NCBI GenBank assembly: GCA_000092065.1
Contig: CP000581.1
DNA: 64,000 nucleotides
Strand: one strand, 5' to 3'
Source: Ostreococcus lucimarinus
Lineage: Eukaryota
In this document: positions 1 to 6,282 of the stretch, piece by piece
Numbering within the stretch: the first letter of the stretch is position 1
Layout of the letters: the number at the start of each line of letters is the position of its first letter
Made by a program: the position numbers and the translations under genes
Notes under the pieces: model-generated
Seen by the model: only the letters and a program-made list of their open reading frames with translations
What the model was told of the DNA's origin: nothing
Database searches by the model: none

Positions 1-221
1 CGCACACCGTCAGTCACTCGCGCTCTCGCGTCGTCGTTCCGTTCGCGCCCCGCGCGCGCCCGTTTGGATAAACCCCAAACGACCCATCTCGCCGTCGGCG
101 ATTCGCGCCGCGCGCGCCCGCGATTCGCGCCGCCCCCCCCCCCCGGCGCGTCCCGCACAAAAAAAAACTCCTCGCGCGCGTTTCTCGCTCGCGCGCGCGC
201 GTCGCGTCGCTCAAACGTACG

Positions 222-592
222 ATCAACGCCTCAACCTCCGCCGAGTTCCCGCCGACCGCGGCGAGCTGCGATCGAATGAGCTCGTCGCGATCGTCGAGCG
301 CCTTCCCCACCGGCCCGAACACCGTCTTATCGAGGATCGTCATCAGCAGCAAAAATTCCGTCGCGATGATCGGCAGCGTGAGATCGAAGTCGAACAGCTT
401 CCCCGCCTCGGCGTGCGCCGCCGGGACCGCGCACGCGATCTGCGCCGCGAGCGTCATCGCGGGGAGCTTGACGCGATCGACGACGTCGGCGACGCGCGCC
501 TTGACGGCGGTCGCGCGCGTCGCCGCGCGCTTGCTCGGCGCGGGCGCCTTCGCGGCGGTGATTCGGATCGCGCGGGCGGCGACGAGGGACAT
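222..592 (-). CDS. ATPG: Chloroplast ATP synthase CF0 subunit b' (subunit II, AtpG-type), nuclear-encoded. Only the first coding exon is in the window (transit peptide plus N-terminal membrane segment). The gene continues past the window start.
   Basis: The in-frame ATG at 590-592 lies inside track ORF 14..1387(-). It gives MSLVAARAIRITAAKAPAPSKRAATRA (transit-peptide-like), then AHAEAGKLFDFDLTLPIIATEFLLLMTILDKTVFGPVGKALDDRDELIRSQLAAVGGNSAEVEALI. LFDF(D/N)LTLP..EFLLLM..L is the hallmark of chloroplast b/b' subunits. The reading degenerates into junk immediately after EVEALI, where the minus strand reads GTACGT. That is a consensus intron donor with its G at about position 221. Confidence 0.5.
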
Positions 593-1385
593 CTCGTTCG
601 TGGGCGTGCGCGTGTGTGTCGCGATCCGCCGTCGCGGCGCGACGCGTGCCTCGCGCGGGGATTCGATCGCGAGATTCGCTTCGTCCGTGTGTCGCGCGGC
701 GTCACCGGTCTCGCGATCGATCGACCGTCCGCCGTCGATCGATGGCGCGACGGTCGCGCGCGCGCGTCGAACCTCGCGTCGTCGATCGACGCGCGACGTC
801 GCGACCGCGCGCGCGACGCCGCGCGCGGGCGTTCGCGCGCGACGCCGAATCGCGACGCGACGCGACGCGGCGACGCGATGCCGCGACGCGCGGCGACGCG
901 CGCGCGGTAGATCGATCGCCATGGCGCCGAGCCATCGATCGTCGTACGGCGCGCGCGATCGCACGTACGCGTGTCGCGCGACGCTGCGGATGTGGACCGC
1001 GTGCGCGTGCTTTCCGTGCGTGGGCGAGACGCTGTGCGAGCCCGGAGACTTGGGGTATCGCGCGCGATATCTCGTGTTTCGATGCGAGCGCGCGCGCGCG
1101 ATCGGCGGACGCGCGGCGGAGATGGCGGGGGAGGACGTGCGCGGGATGGTGGAGGCGCTCGAGGACGACGTCTTCGCGTGCCGGGTGAGCGCGGGCGAGG
1201 GCGCGGTGGAAGTCGAGATTCGAGCGGGAAGTCGAGCGAGGGTGCTGATGTACGCGCTGACGCTGCGGACGGCGGACGGGCGGGGGCTGGGGTTGGAGCT
1301 GGTGGAGGAGCGACGCGCGAGTCGACGCGAGACGGTTGGGTGGTGACGTTTCCGAGGGCGCGCTCCGAGGGCTTCATAATCGAGC

Positions 1386-2042
1386 ATGCGGTGGTCGAGC
1401 GCGTGGATCGTCGCGATGTGCGTCGTCGTCGCGGAGGCGACGTCGATACCGGCTGAACCGCGCGAGGTGACGCGATACGGCGCGGCGCAGATTACTGAGA
1501 TTTCTTACGAACAACTCGACGCGGCGGACGCGACGGAGGGCGAGACCGCGGGCTCGGGGGACTGGATCGAAATTTACAACCCGAGTGAAACCGACAAAGT
1601 AGATCTCACCGGTTGGGCGTTCACCGATCGCAGCGCGCGCGCGATCGAAAAGAATCCCGAAGTCGCGGTTGGTCATTGGTTCGAGCTGCCCGAACTCGAG
1701 CTCGCCCCGAAATCGTTCGCCGTGCTCGCGCGCGACGAAATGGCGTTTCGCACAGCGTATCGCGACCGCGACAACGCGCTCGACGCGCTCGTCCGAGGGA
1801 GCTTCAAGTTTGGACTCACCGCCAAGGGCGAGACGGTTCGTCTTTTGGACGCGTCCAACGAAACCGTGTACGAGCTGACGTACGACGACAAGTCCCCGTG
1901 GCCCGACACCTCGGAAGGTGGACACAGCCTCGAGCTCATCGACGTTCGTCTAGATCCGAACGATCCGTTCAGCTGGATCAGTTCATACGAAGAGGGAGGC
2001 ACGCCGGGCGAAATCAACTCGATCGCGGTCTCGTGGGGGTAG
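1386..2042 (+). CDS. Small secreted protein (218 aa) made of a signal peptide plus one lamin-tail-domain (LTD, bacterial-type) module.
   Basis: ATG at 1386. N-terminal MRWSSAWIVAMCVVVAEA is signal-like. The body matches the bacterial LTD consensus block by block: ITEISYEQ, GDWIEIYNPSETDKVDLTGW, FELPELELAPKSFAVLARDEMAFRTAY, GLTAKGETVRLLDASNETVYELTYDDKSPWP, GGHSLELID. Codon usage is GC3-rich like host genes. Confidence 0.6.
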   Translation: MRWSSAWIVAMCVVVAEATSIPAEPREVTRYGAAQITEISYEQLDAADATEGETAGSGDWIEIYNPSETDKVDLTGWAFTDRSARAIEKNPEVAVGHWFELPELELAPKSFAVLARDEMAFRTAYRDRDNALDALVRGSFKFGLTAKGETVRLLDASNETVYELTYDDKSPWPDTSEGGHSLELIDVRLDPNDPFSWISSYEEGGTPGEINSIAVSWG

Positions 2043-2043
2043 C

Positions 2044-2111
2044 GCCGCGTAATCGAAGCCGCGTAATCGAAGCCGCGTAATCAAGCCGCGTAATCGAAGC
2101 CGCGTAATCGA
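2044..2111. repeat. Tandem repeat: 14-bp unit gccgcgtaatcgaa, 5 copies (one copy 13 bp, last copy truncated), starting right after the stop codon of the LTD gene.
   Basis: Direct reading of 2041-2113: gccgcgtaatcgaa gccgcgtaatcgaa gccgcgtaatcaa gccgcgtaatcgaa gccgcgtaatcga. Confidence 0.8.
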
Positions 2112-2222
2112 CGCGCGTCGGTGCTCGATCGGATTCGATCTGTCTTTGAAATTCATTCTTTCATTTCGATCATCAACTAATACGTCGCGAGCGACACCGA
2201 CGCGGCGTAAATAAATGCTCCT

Positions 2223-3074
2223 CTACTTGATGGACGACCCCGAAGGCGTCTCTGGCGCCGTGCACTCACCCGCGGCGCACGCGAGCACCTTGTCGTCGTA
2301 CACCGCCTTGCCATCCTTCACGACGAGCTTTTCCTTAACGGCATCCCAAAACTTACTCTTGCACTCCTTCGGGTACGTCTCCGACGCGGTCATCCCCGTC
2401 GGCGTCACCGGCGCGCCGACTTCGGCGCCCTCGGGCGCGCGCACGAGCTTCACCTTCGTCTCGCCGTCAACCTCGAACTCCGTGGCCAGAATCATCGCCT
2501 CGGACGTTTGCCCCGCCAACTTCGCCACCTTCAAGTTCAAAATCGTCAGCACCAAAGCGTCCTTCAGTTCGCTCTCCGGGACAAACTTGCGCAACCCCGT
2601 GACGACTTGCCTCGGGTTCTCTTCGCCGCAGTCCACCTTGCACAGATACAATTTATCGCTATTCTCCACGCGTCCCACCTCGATCACGCGTCCGACGACG
2701 AGTTTCGCCTTTTCCATCGGATCCGCGTCCACCGCCGCCGCCGCCGCCGGTCTCTTCTCCTTCTTCTCCTTCTTCTTCCCGCCCTCGCTCGCGTCGCTCG
2801 CGGGCCTCCGCACCCCCTCCCCCCTCGGCTTGATCACCGGGTTCAGCATCGCCACGATGTACTCGCACGTCTGATCGAACGCCTCGGGCATGGGATTGTT
2901 CGCCTCGAACGGTTTCGTCATCACGTATCCCGTGCGCTCGCACGTCACGCGCGTCACGCCCCGCGGCGGCGCGCGCGCGATCGGATCGGCGCGCGCCGTC
3001 GCGTCGACCGCGCGCGTCGTCGCGGGCGCGCCGGCGCCGAGCAAAGCGTCGGCGAACGCGGACATCGTTTCCAT
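2223..3074 (-). CDS. tRNA-binding arm protein with a C-terminal EMAP/Myf-type OB-fold tRNA-binding domain (Arc1p / AIMP1 (p43)-like aminoacyl-tRNA-synthetase cofactor).
   Basis: ATG at 3072-3074. The C-terminal GRVIEVGRVENSDKLYLCKVDCGEENPRQVVTGLRKFVPESELKDALVLTILNLKVAKLAGQTSEAMILA is the conserved tRNA-binding (Myf) domain. A lysine-rich linker (GGKKKEKKEKR) precedes it, as in Arc1p/p43. Confidence 0.65.
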   Translation of the reverse strand: METMSAFADALLGAGAPATTRAVDATARADPIARAPPRGVTRVTCERTGYVMTKPFEANNPMPEAFDQTCEYIVAMLNPVIKPRGEGVRRPASDASEGGKKKEKKEKRPAAAAAVDADPMEKAKLVVGRVIEVGRVENSDKLYLCKVDCGEENPRQVVTGLRKFVPESELKDALVLTILNLKVAKLAGQTSEAMILATEFEVDGETKVKLVRAPEGAEVGAPVTPTGMTASETYPKECKSKFWDAVKEKLVVKDGKAVYDDKVLACAAGECTAPETPSGSSIK

Positions 3075-3438
3075 CGAGCGCTCGAGCGGGTTCGCGGTCG
3101 GGCGGCGCGCGCGCGAGTGCGACGCGCGCGCGCCGCGCCGCGCGCGAGGTCGGCGAGTTTTGAGTCGTCGCGACGCGCGCGTCGCGCGGGCGTCGCGGTC
3201 GTCGCGCGGGCGCGTCGCGCGCGTCCGCGCGACGCGACGCGAAAAAAATCGATAAAGAACACATCACCGGATCGAGTGACGCGCGCGCGAACGCCGCGTC
3301 GAGCGCGTCGTCACGGGCGCGGTGGACGGCGCGGAGCGTTTCTGGCGAAAACGCCCGCGCGGAGACGCGACGCGACGGGCGCGCGCGGCGCGAGGCGGCG
3401 CACGACGACGCGCGACGACGCGCGCGCGAGGGGTGAAG
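3075..3438. promoter_or_regulatory. Bidirectional intergenic/promoter region between the divergent Arc1p-like and zinc-finger genes. Extremely CG-dinucleotide-rich (gcgacgcg-type low complexity).
   Basis: It lies between two divergent start codons (3074 on minus, 3439 on plus). No credible ORF. The composition is about 80 percent GC, with repeated cgcgacgcg/gcgcgcg strings. Confidence 0.35.
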
Positions 3439-4029
3439 ATGGCGAACGATCCGTACGAACCGGACGACGCGTCGGACAGCGACGAGGACGCGCGCGAGCG
3501 ACGCGAGAGGGATGCGAGAGCGCGATTCGAGCGCGACGTCGAGGACGAGCTGGGCGACGCGACGGACGTCGACGAGCGATCGTGGGAGGGGTTTTGGCGA
3601 CGCGCGACGGCGGAGAACGCGGCGAAAATGCGGCGGGCGGGATTGGATCCGAATAAAGCGGAGAGCAAGGTGAAGTTCGGGAGACACGGGGAAAAGTTGG
3701 AGAAGGGGAAGTGCGCGACGACGCTTTGCTTTGGGTGCGACGCGCGGTGCGACGAGACGTTTGAGTGCGCGCAGTGCTTGGAAATTTATCGAGCGCGGGC
3801 GAAGAAAGTGGCGTTCGACGCTTGGGAGCGCGCGTTCTTTTGTTCGTGCAAGTGCTACATCGCGAATTGGGATGAGCATCGGCGGCGGCACGGGCCGAGC
3901 ACCGCGGGGCCGACGAAGATGGACGGCGCAGTGCACGAGTTTGAGGCGCCGCCCGGGCTCGGTGCGCTTTGGCACGGATCGGATTTGCGACGATTGGAGT
4001 TTGAAGAGTGCGCACCTATGATGTATTGA
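3439..4029 (+). CDS. Small acidic protein with a C-terminal MYND/HIT-type zinc finger.
   Basis: The first ATG (3439) in track ORF 3322..4029 gives MANDPYEPDDASDSDEDARERRERD... The cysteine/histidine pattern CATTLCFGCDARCDETFECAQC ... FFCSCKCYIANWDEHRRRH fits the CxxC...CxxC...(F/Y)CSxxC...W..H...H layout of MYND/zf-HIT fingers. Confidence 0.5.
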   Translation: MANDPYEPDDASDSDEDARERRERDARARFERDVEDELGDATDVDERSWEGFWRRATAENAAKMRRAGLDPNKAESKVKFGRHGEKLEKGKCATTLCFGCDARCDETFECAQCLEIYRARAKKVAFDAWERAFFCSCKCYIANWDEHRRRHGPSTAGPTKMDGAVHEFEAPPGLGALWHGSDLRRLEFEECAPMMY

Positions 4030-4077
4030 GATCACGGCGGCGCCTAGGGCTATCGTTCGCTACGTTGTGTGAGTCTA

Positions 4078-5205
4078 CTAGTCCGGCGTGAGGAGTTCAG
4101 ATTCGCCGCCCCGCGCGCCGCCTCCAGGTTCGACTTCCAACGGAGGTGCGGTCGGTGACGCCATCGACGGTGCGACGTAATCATCGCGACCGAAATCGGC
4201 TTTCGCATCGTTCCCACTCTTGTAATGCGATTCTTCGTCCGACGTCTCCACTCCTAGAGGCACGCCGTGCGTGCGTAAATATTCCGCCAGCGTGAAATGA
4301 TTATATTTCCCCGCGATATCGACCGCGGTTCGCCCTCGAACGTCTCTCGCGGCTGGATTTGCGCCGAGCACTAGTAACTTTTTGCACGTCGCCTTGTTCC
4401 CGTTCGCGGCGGCGATCATGAGCAACGTCTGCTCATCGCTCGTCTCGTCGCGCGCGTCAACGTCTAAGCCCTCGGCATCGACCAAACGTTCCATTTCGTA
4501 CGTACGATTCAGTTTGCACGCCCGAATCGCCGCCGTCATGACCTCGGCCTCTCGCGCGAACGGCGACGACGACGCGCGCGAGCCGCTCTCTGTGCGCGAA
4601 CTGGACAGCCGCGCGCCGGCGTCGAACGCGCTCGCGCCGATCCACTCCGTGTCGTCGCTGAACGTGTCTATCGCGGGATTGTTCAAAATCTCCAAAAGCT
4701 GCCCTGCGACCGTACCGATGGACATGATTTCATCGCACAACGCGTACGCCTCTTTCAAATCGGCGCCGCGCTCGACGTCTCGCGCAAACGTCTCGTAATC
4801 CATATCGCCAATAATCTCCGACCGCTCCTCATCGAACGACGTCATCAAAAACGCAAACACCGACCGTATTTCCTCATCCGACAACCTCTTCCATCGCACC
4901 GTCCGCGTCAGCCGATCGATCACCGCGTCCAGTCGCGTCGGCGTCCACAGCGCGCCGCATCGAACGCTCGCGCACGCCCGCCAAAAATCACACAATCGCA
5001 CCGTCCCGCGCCCGAACTGATCGCACATCGCGTGAAACCGTCGAAACACCACCGAACGCTCCCAGTCATCGCGTCCGAGCCCCAACGCGCGCGCCATCAC
5101 GCGCTTCTCCAATTTCGCCTCCGCGCTCCCGAACCCGTCCCGAACGACCGCGCGCAGGATTATTCCCGGTTTCGTCGCCCCCCGCGGTCGCAGCGCGGCG
5201 TACAT
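4078..5205 (-). CDS. Ankyrin-repeat protein.
   Basis: The C-terminal TLLMIAAANGNKATCKKLLVLGANPAARDVRGRTAVDIAGKYNHFTLAEYL reads as two ANK repeats. The track ORF start at 5331 is GTG. The first in-frame ATG is MYAALRPRG at 5203-5205. The start is uncertain. Confidence 0.5.
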   Translation of the reverse strand: MYAALRPRGATKPGIILRAVVRDGFGSAEAKLEKRVMARALGLGRDDWERSVVFRRFHAMCDQFGRGTVRLCDFWRACASVRCGALWTPTRLDAVIDRLTRTVRWKRLSDEEIRSVFAFLMTSFDEERSEIIGDMDYETFARDVERGADLKEAYALCDEIMSIGTVAGQLLEILNNPAIDTFSDDTEWIGASAFDAGARLSSSRTESGSRASSSPFAREAEVMTAAIRACKLNRTYEMERLVDAEGLDVDARDETSDEQTLLMIAAANGNKATCKKLLVLGANPAARDVRGRTAVDIAGKYNHFTLAEYLRTHGVPLGVETSDEESHYKSGNDAKADFGRDDYVAPSMASPTAPPLEVEPGGGARGGESELLTPD

Positions 5206-6282
5206 CGCGTCTCCCAGCCGCACCTCGCGCGCGCTCGCGTGCGTCCCGCGCCGGCACCGCCTGCATCGCCGAACAGCGTCGTCGTCGTCAGTCGTCCCTC
5301 GTCGTCGTCGTCGGCCGCGGCGCGTAACCACCGCGTCGGCATCCGCGCGCGTTTCGGCGCTCGCGCCCGCGCGCGCGCGCAGTCACCGCGACGCCGGCGC
5401 GCGTCGCGACTCGGTTCGCGATCGCTCGCGCACCTCGCGCTCGCGCACGCCCCCATGCGCGCGATCGCCGCGCGTCGCGCGCTGGCGTCGTCGCCGCGCG
5501 CGCGCGCGACCGACCGCGCCGACCCCATCCACCACTTGAGTCAAGACTCATCAGCGATTACATGGTAAAACCTTCCCTTGAATACGAGTCGCGCAAAACG
5601 ACGCGTCGATCGAAGCGACGCCGCGCGTCGGTCGACTTTTCGCGCGCGTCGTTTTGCGCGCTGCATACGCTCCGCGCGCGCTTATGTACGACGACGTCGC
5701 GCGTCGCGGGCTTTTATGTCCGCGCGCGCGCCTCGCGCGCGCGGCGACCGCCGACGGCGCGCGCGCGGCAGTCTGCGTCGCGCGACGCGCGGCGATCTCG
5801 ACGCCGTCGACGCGAGAGAGGTGCGTGGAAATTATCGCGACGCGCGCGCGTCGAGCGGCGCGCGCGGCGCGCGCGCGGCGCGCGGGAGGGTGGACATCGC
5901 GCGACGTCGCGCGCGAGGGCAAACGCGCGCGCGGTCGATCGGGGGAAACGCGCGGCGCGCGCGGTCGATCGGGGAGGTGGGCGCGCGCGCGGCGCGCGCG
6001 CGGTGGTTGAATATCGCGCGGGGTGGGGACGCGCGCGAACGGGGCGAACGGGACGCGCGCGCGCGCGCGAGGGGAGGGTTCGCGGCGGATTGATCGATTG
6101 GGGTATATGCGGTCGCGGGGCGGTGCGGACGGCGGTCGTGGACGCGCGCGCGAGGCGCTGGGGGGCGGGCGGGCGAGCGGGATGCGTTCGGGGAAAGCGT
6201 ACTGACGATCGACGCGCGTGATTCGCGAAAAACAGGTTGACGCGTGCGCTGGAGACGCGAGCGCTTTAAGTAGAGGTTTGCG

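Follow-up and report, generated by a model that had tools for sequence, protein, structure and literature searches.

A free-standing, probably secreted lamin-tail-domain protein of bacterial type in Ostreococcus lucimarinus and its relatives, and the tandem repeat behind its stop codon

The lamin-tail domain (LTD) is chiefly familiar from animal lamins, of which it forms the globular tail. The subject here is a gene that encodes such a domain in a picoalga, Ostreococcus lucimarinus, and that lies near one end of a 64,000-nucleotide stretch of contig CP000581.1 (assembly GCA_000092065.1; the whole stretch is called the window, and positions are counted from its first letter). Its 218-aa product appears to be a signal peptide followed by one LTD, and a 14-bp tandem repeat begins just behind its stop codon. 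The order to which the alga belongs, the Mamiellales, is among the most abundant marine picoeukaryotes, and O. tauri is genetically tractable. Among bacterial proteins, a layout similar to the algal one is seen in ExeM of Shewanella oneidensis, in which a signal peptide also leads directly into an LTD; ExeM then continues with an OB-fold, an EEP nuclease domain and a C-terminal hydrophobic region, whereas the algal protein ends after the LTD (PMC6085458). As cited in that study, Mans et al. (2004) proposed that the LTD directs proteins to membranes or membrane-associated structures.

Nearest in sequence, outside the algae, are the LTDs of FCB-group bacteria (Latescibacterota, Bacteroidota, Gemmatimonadota, Ignavibacteria), found in proteins built from CotH, LTD and Por_Secre_tail domains. 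These match residues 36-216 of the algal protein at 34-39% identity, share with it the motifs I.E..YN, W.EL.NPS, Y.D...WP, G.SLE and W..S...GTPG..N, and are, like it, extracytoplasmic by prediction. Unlike them, the algal LTD is free: it carries a predicted signal peptide of eukaryotic style and lacks CotH, nuclease and phosphoesterase domains and the sorting tail of the type IX secretion system (T9SS), and it differs further in having two helical insertions and a strongly acidic composition. The metazoan lamin tails A/C, B1 and B2 (PDB 1IFR, 3JT0, 2LLL) share the Ig-fold of the algal model, but identity is only 10-13% and there is no sequence-level match at E <= 10. The algal protein also differs from nuclear lamins in having no coiled-coil rod, nuclear localisation signal or CaaX box, and a predicted signal peptide takes the place of nuclear localisation.

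The most likely reading of the locus, in our view, is that it holds an expressed, constrained nuclear gene for a secreted bacterial-type LTD of ancient bacterial origin, followed by a functionless young minisatellite. A free and probably secreted LTD of bacterial type would then be conserved across the sampled Mamiellales genera, possibly as the outcome of an ancient transfer. The finding is modest and leaves current views unchanged: the LTD call is already in UniProt and the domain family is already known. In a literature search, "lamin tail domain" and Ostreococcus occurred together in no paper, and the accession numbers were cited in none. As a small, single-domain protein under purifying selection, the algal LTD offers one of the simplest systems in which to ask what a bacterial-type LTD binds, and its family is a candidate for ancient gene transfer from bacterium to alga.

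The LTD gene and its predicted product

The open reading frame (ORF) of the LTD gene is closed upstream by a TAA at 1377-1379, three codons before the ATG, and 1386 is therefore its first possible start (Table 1). The gene corresponds to XP_001415406.1 / ABO93698.1 / UniProt A4RQK6 of O. lucimarinus CCE9901, labelled automatically as "LTD domain-containing protein" in UniProt and as "predicted protein" at NCBI; an identical 218-aa protein is present in a public collection (P0014), with XP_001415406.1 in its 90% cluster. The NCBI model has 208 aa and starts at M11, 10 codons downstream of 1386, which shortens the putative signal peptide and removes half of its core. In an MMETSP transcript from a near-identical strain the ORF again has 218 aa, and its sole difference from the window protein is M11V; translation in that strain therefore cannot begin at M11, and M1 is to be preferred.

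Purifying selection acts on the LTD gene. Pairwise ratios of nonsynonymous to synonymous substitution (dN/dS, Nei-Gojobori) with three relatives lie in the range 0.12-0.30: the comparison with a 99% relative gives 0.12, that with a species at 79% identity 0.26 and that with one at 62% 0.20. The preliminary description of this stretch, made from its letters, had taken the codon usage to be fully host-like, and this agrees with an index akin to the codon adaptation index, which is 0.715 for the LTD gene; the 16 long genes of the window from which the index was built average 0.681 +/- 0.035, and values of 0.48-0.65 are obtained for the five other frames of this DNA. The GC content at codon positions 1, 2 and 3 (0.62, 0.48 and 0.77) is the usual coding signature here. 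Expression, whose absence would have refuted the preliminary description, is evident from MMETSP transcripts; these come from O. mediterraneus and from a strain of O. lucimarinus type that differs by 1 aa. A spurious frame of the kind that GC-rich DNA produces was considered for the ORF and ruled out by dN/dS, codon index and orthologues.

All of the motif blocks from which an LTD had first been recognized occur in the translation: EIYN at residues 62-65, VDLTGW at 72-77, FAVLARD at 111-117, GETVRLLD at 148-155, YDD..PWP at 166-173 and GHSLEL at 179-184. The Pfam LTD model PF00932 matches at E = 2.3e-11 with 44.5 bits, above its gathering score of 34.3, in an alignment confined to residues 35-166 (1488..1883). 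The domain extends further. A family profile aligns bacterial LTDs at positions from about 30 to 215, including G.SLEL, SW..S and GGTPGE.NS, and tblastn matches to bacterial loci span query residues 36-216; since bacterial LTDs align as far as about residue 215, the whole mature chain is one LTD, in keeping with the single module originally proposed. LTD is the sole family found by a Pfam scan of the 218-aa protein, and an NCBIfam scan found none. The family profile covers residues from about 30 to 217, leaving no room for a catalytic or sorting domain. The mature protein is strongly acidic (39 D/E vs 17 K/R, net charge about -22) and contains no Cys. No second hydrophobic segment, KDEL/HDEL-like end or CaaX was found in the 218 residues, which end in ...SIAVSWG.

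Structure prediction agrees with the domain assignment. With an alignment of 37 sequences, bacterial ones included, AlphaFold gave a model with a predicted local distance difference test score (pLDDT) of 87 and a predicted template-modelling score (pTM) of 0.81; with an alignment of 13 sequences the pLDDT was 63.6. The model is a beta-sandwich with strands from residue 35 to 199 and short helical insertions at 84-97 and 118-134. In a Foldseek search of the PDB, the top eight matches (8/8) were the Ig-fold tails of lamins B1, B2 and A/C, at E-values of 1e-3 to 6e-3, probabilities of at least 0.99 and target-normalised TM scores of 0.50-0.63, with the ninth match at E = 0.16; the shallower model led to lamin tails as well. 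As modelled, then, the fold is the lamin-tail Ig-like beta-sandwich. Used as queries against PDB sequences, the protein and the family profile returned chance matches only (E about 0.3-1.2), to the coat protein of satellite panicum mosaic virus and to a complex I subunit, both dismissed as noise. As a separate observation, orthologues in the Bathycoccus-like lineages and in a lineage of 69% GC (L024/L025 5001..5720, L026 5001..5756, L016 5478..6329) carry poly-Asp or otherwise acidic insertions, such as DDDDDDDK and DDDDDDDDDDD. These fall in the loop where the Ostreococcus protein has its first helical insertion; the loop is hypervariable and acidic, in a domain that is otherwise conserved.

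The N-terminus is predicted to be a signal peptide, as the preliminary description had also supposed. It combines the elements expected of one, namely a basic n-region, an h-region of 7-15 residues and small residues at -3/-1: a basic residue is followed by an uncharged core of 14 residues (Kyte-Doolittle 9-mer maximum 3.26 at residue 8) and by A-E-A, with predicted cleavage most likely after A18. Signal peptides evolve in such a way that their properties are kept and their sequence is not. Orthologues in Ostreococcus and Bathycoccus have an equivalent N-terminal segment, alike in properties and unrelated in sequence, and by hydropathy and the -3/-1 rule a signal-peptide-like N-terminus is seen in all orthologues. 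The LTD protein is thus probably secreted. Alternatively, the N-terminal stretch might be a signal anchor or an organelle-targeting sequence, in which case the LTD would be tethered to a membrane or would reside in the lumen of the endoplasmic reticulum (ER) or nuclear envelope or in the plastid. One 19-residue window (5-23) just attains a hydropathy typical of transmembrane segments (1.63), and long basic N-terminal extensions precede the hydrophobic stretch in P0006, P0009, P0232 and P0234. These extensions, however, stem from prokaryote-style gene calls that possibly start too early, and the uncharged core, of only 13-19 residues, is followed in most orthologues by small -3/-1 residues (A-E-A here), so that an anchor or targeting function is unlikely, though not negligibly so.

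Bacterial relatives, origin and possible role

The LTD gene belongs to a small family with a fixed chromosomal setting. A word-based search returned 12 proteins, which share this small architecture without exception, and 46 were returned when a Bathycoccus-like member was included in a profile search; a precomputed PF00932 match is present in all orthologues but a truncated O. tauri model. At orthologous loci the gene order is Npa1-domain gene, ATP-synthase-b-like gene (-), LTD gene (+), tRNA-binding-domain gene (-) and ankyrin gene. This order is held in O. lucimarinus-type genomes, the 62%-identity Ostreococcus species and O. mediterraneus-type contigs, and also in two Bathycoccus-like lineages (42% and 47% GC) and in the 69%-GC lineage, which is called Micromonas-like on the grounds of GC content and synteny and is probably Micromonas or a relative; one cluster of Bathycoccus-like members includes a record named Bathycoccus prasinos. 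Orthologues flanked by the ATP-synthase-b and tRNA-binding genes are present in every Ostreococcus lineage sampled. Shared synteny indicates that the LTD gene is at least as old as the common ancestor of these genera, and any transfer must accordingly have been ancient. The initial impression that a free-standing LTD is unusual in a picoalga is borne out in so far as the domain does stand alone; it is no oddity of this alga, given a syntenic family in several genera.

Beyond the algae, the nearest relatives come only from bacteria and show 34-39% identity across the full domain. When 1.84 billion representatives were searched exhaustively with the profile, 14,897 matches were obtained at E <= 1e-3, and among the best 150, which were inspected, those outside the algal family were mostly huge proteins with multiple LTDs. 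When matches were re-scored domain by domain, the best one outside Ostreococcus was the Bathycoccus-like orthologue, with 139 bits. The next, at 75-88 bits, came from proteins with CotH kinase, T9SS Por_Secre_tail, CHU_C and FlgD-Ig domains, with Latescibacterota, Bacteroidota and Sphingobacteriales as named sources; one bacterial LTD match is encoded between SecA and DnaJ genes. A scan of GTDB with one genome per species found 237 relatives. The best of them cover query residues 36-216 with 36-39% identity and belong to Latescibacterota, Gemmatimonadota, Bacteroidales/Paludibacter, Balneolaceae and Ignavibacteria, with Planctomycetota and Verrucomicrobiota lower down. In the PDB, not one lamin chain matched the algal family profile, even at E <= 10. 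Sequence comparison therefore supports the earlier assignment of the LTD protein to a bacterial type, its closest non-algal relatives being bacterial CotH/T9SS/LTD proteins and metazoan lamin tails escaping the profile. A link to giant viruses or phages was rejected: no viral relative was found in IMG/VR contigs, and matches to BFVD structures were unconvincing (best E = 7e-3, probability 0.89).

A single ancient acquisition from bacteria is a plausible account of these relationships and the simplest one. It would have taken place in the Mamiellales ancestor and been followed by full adaptation to host codon usage. The competing view is vertical descent, in which an LTD of bacterial appearance goes back to early eukaryotes or green algae, with survival only or mainly in the Mamiellales and without any transfer. 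An old gene within the order, with fixed synteny and fully host-like codons, would fit such descent, and in a neighbour-joining tree (46 domains, 146 columns) the algal sequences form one group among bacterial LTDs (bootstrap 50/100), with no bacterial donor shown; only the best 150 of the 14,897 profile matches, moreover, were inspected. Against vertical descent, the 46 profile matches include no other eukaryotic source, despite the presence of MMETSP, EukProt and Tara data in the collection searched, the closest outside sequences are without exception bacterial, and lamin tails are undetectable by sequence. On balance vertical descent is doubtful, though it retains some credibility.

As to what the protein may do, the product would have a cleavable signal peptide and one bacterial-type LTD, with no catalytic domain, membrane anchor or retention signal. 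It would enter the ER and be released, most likely to the cell surface, the medium or the endomembrane lumen, and the LTD might act there as a stand-alone binding module, the role thought to belong to this domain on bacterial surface enzymes. With modest confidence, then, the LTD protein can be regarded as a soluble binding module of the secretory pathway, at or outside the cell surface. A more ambitious version, which we think distinctly unlikely, would have a surface LTD of the marine FCB group captured by the Mamiellales ancestor and retained over hundreds of millions of years as a free, secreted and highly acidic binder at the alga's interface with bacteria, viruses or dissolved polymers, perhaps encoded bicistronically with an upstream 141-aa ORF; if true, the bacterial-type LTD would here have its first stand-alone use in a eukaryote with an extracellular role.

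The algal LTD could also be an extracellular accessory for binding DNA, in the service of DNA or phosphate scavenging. Secreted nucleases such as ExeM carry LTDs, and deletion of the ExeM LTD slowed DNA degradation in vitro; in vivo, however, that LTD was dispensable for the degradation of extracellular DNA (PMC6085458). For halophile DNases, too, the LTD has been suggested to be an accessory that binds DNA (PMC4486849). The algal protein has no nuclease domain and its gene has no nuclease neighbour; the net charge of the mature chain and the lack of such a partner make DNA binding seem very unlikely, and the high acidity together with the absence of Cys would argue against simple DNA binding.

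The array behind the stop codon and the reading as a whole

The five repeat copies noticed at the stop codon correspond to an array that Tandem Repeats Finder describes as 4.9 copies with period 14, 96% matches and a score of 129. A single base (C2043) separates the TAG stop from the array, which is 68 bp long; its third copy has 13 bp and its last copy ends ...CGAC. The stop codons of the LTD gene and of the convergent tRNA-binding gene are separated by a spacer of 180 bp, part of which the array takes up. No other place in the window carries the unit, GCCGCGTAATCGAA, when 0-1 mismatch is allowed. Chance clearly does not account for the array, yet arrays of similar score occur about 8 times in the 64-kb window.

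Comparison between genomes indicates that the array is of limited age and varies between strains. The window and 13 assemblies (L001-L010, L020, L022, L029) have an identical array of 5 copies, and L001-L010, L020 and L022 also share a G-to-T change downstream of it. Six copies are present in L021, and the diverged strain L023 has 4 copies of a variant unit, GCCGCGTRRGCGAA, of the form GCCGCGT(GG/AA/AG)GCGAA. In the 79%-identity species (L011/L012) the array is replaced by TCGAGAG x 2 (L011 1470..1490), and the rest of the spacer can be aligned. The 62%-identity species and the O. mediterraneus-like, Bathycoccus-like and 69%-GC loci have no array; it is thus absent at L011/L012, L013, L030 and the Bathycoccus- and Micromonas-like loci, though the LTD gene is kept there. 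The tandem duplication in L011 is an observation in its own right, as the site just 3' of the stop seems to be repeatedly prone to duplication.

From these sequences, the array is best seen as a young, strain-variable minisatellite resized by slippage. It would be a recent, lineage-specific product of replication slippage, made and resized between two convergent genes, and nothing appears to point to a function. Like eukaryotic minisatellites or variable-number tandem repeats of intergenic and 3' untranslated regions (UTRs), it consists of head-to-tail units, here of 14 bp, with differences in copy number between strains and rapid divergence of the unit; unlike typical ones, it is very short, stands exactly after a stop codon and is represented among the sampled genomes mostly by one allele. 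Each unit holds a TAA, and stops consequently occur in all three frames (the first in-frame one at 2064), a trivial consequence of the 14-bp period.

The preliminary description, which is correct in what it describes and in its hedged interpretation, had suggested a regulatory or slippage-prone element; slippage-proneness is supported by the 5, 6 and 4 copies, and regulation is not supported. A functional 3'UTR element, whether a poly(A) or termination signal, a protein-binding site or a back-up stop cassette, is highly improbable: although the array begins one base past the stop codon, offers stops in every frame, has a related counterpart at the same place in L023 and is kept at exactly 5 copies in 13 other assemblies, it is missing from species that conserve the gene, its TAA drifts to TGG or TAG in L023, its predicted RNA fold is no more stable than that of shuffled sequences (z = 0.06), Rfam has no match in positions 1..5000 at E <= 1, and comparable arrays are common in the window. 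Transcript contigs with a 3' end were sought through Logan and MMETSP-derived proteins, and only genomic contigs were found. The interest of the repeat is confined to its possible use in marking strains of O. lucimarinus-type populations.

Several points weigh against the reading of the locus as a secreted LTD of ancient bacterial origin followed by a functionless array. In the words of the ExeM study, the part played by LTDs in bacteria "has not yet been elucidated" (PMC6085458). Hydropathy and the -3/-1 rule are the whole basis on which secretion is proposed, and the N-termini of some orthologue gene calls are weak or truncated (P0002, P0007). The tree, at the bootstrap value given above, resolves no bacterial sister and fixes neither the direction of a transfer nor its donor. 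Databases are overwhelmingly bacterial, and among the best 150 of 14,897 matches other eukaryotic LTDs of bacterial type could have been missed. Lastly, with exactly 5 copies in 13 of 15 other assemblies, the array is only mildly unstable.

Layout of the locus and neighbouring genes

Table 1. Coordinates of the LTD gene, its parts and its flanks in the window
Feature	Position	Strand	Description	Basis
LTD protein coding sequence	1386..2042	+	ATG to TAG, 218 aa, stop TAG 2040-2042 included	ORF list
Predicted signal peptide	1386..1445	+	residues 1 to about 18-20, MR / WSSAWIVAMCVVVA / EA, cleaved before TS	hydropathy, -3/-1 rule
Single lamin-tail domain	1473..2036	+	residues about 30-217	Pfam, family profile, tblastn, AlphaFold, Foldseek
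14-bp minisatellite	2044..2111	+	GCCGCGTAATCGAA x 4.9; LTD 3' flank or 3'UTR	Tandem Repeats Finder
Remaining convergent spacer	2112..2222	.	common to both 3' ends	alignable with 79%-identity sister species (L011/L012)
ATP-synthase subunit b/b'-like gene	14..about 595	-	divergent to the 141-aa ORF and the LTD gene	
141-aa ORF	921..1346	+	no Pfam family	
tRNA-binding-domain gene	2223..3074	-	convergent to the LTD gene	PF01588, 92 bits

The 141-aa ORF upstream ends 39 nt before the LTD start, on the same strand. Its counterparts in other Ostreococcus species have 77% and 47% amino-acid identity, with insertions and deletions in whole codons, and O. mediterraneus-like contigs hold a counterpart of 152 aa; the gap from the small ORF to the LTD start in other species is 61-124 nt. 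This arrangement may represent two genes packed extremely closely together or a bicistronic transcript of a kind known from green algae (PMC7896298).

On the other side of the small ORF, ATP-synt_B matches occur at the orthologous loci L014, L016 and L024. In the window, the ATP-synthase b-like frame runs on after ...EALIVRLSDA into an arginine-rich stretch, which suggests an intron or a mis-extended ORF. The convergent tRNA-binding gene goes by the JGI name AIMP1-like in orthologues. Its stop lies only 49-52 bp from that of the LTD gene in Bathycoccus-like genomes and 51 bp from it in O. mediterraneus-like ones, and with such short convergent spacers the 3'UTRs of the two genes must overlap or be minimal. 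Intergenic and promoter stretches of the window (790..906, 3105..3241, 5357..5508 and others) consist of degenerate, CG-rich short repeats resembling CGCGACG, and these produce numerous long but spurious ORFs on either strand, such as 276..1346 (+) and 454..1377 (-).

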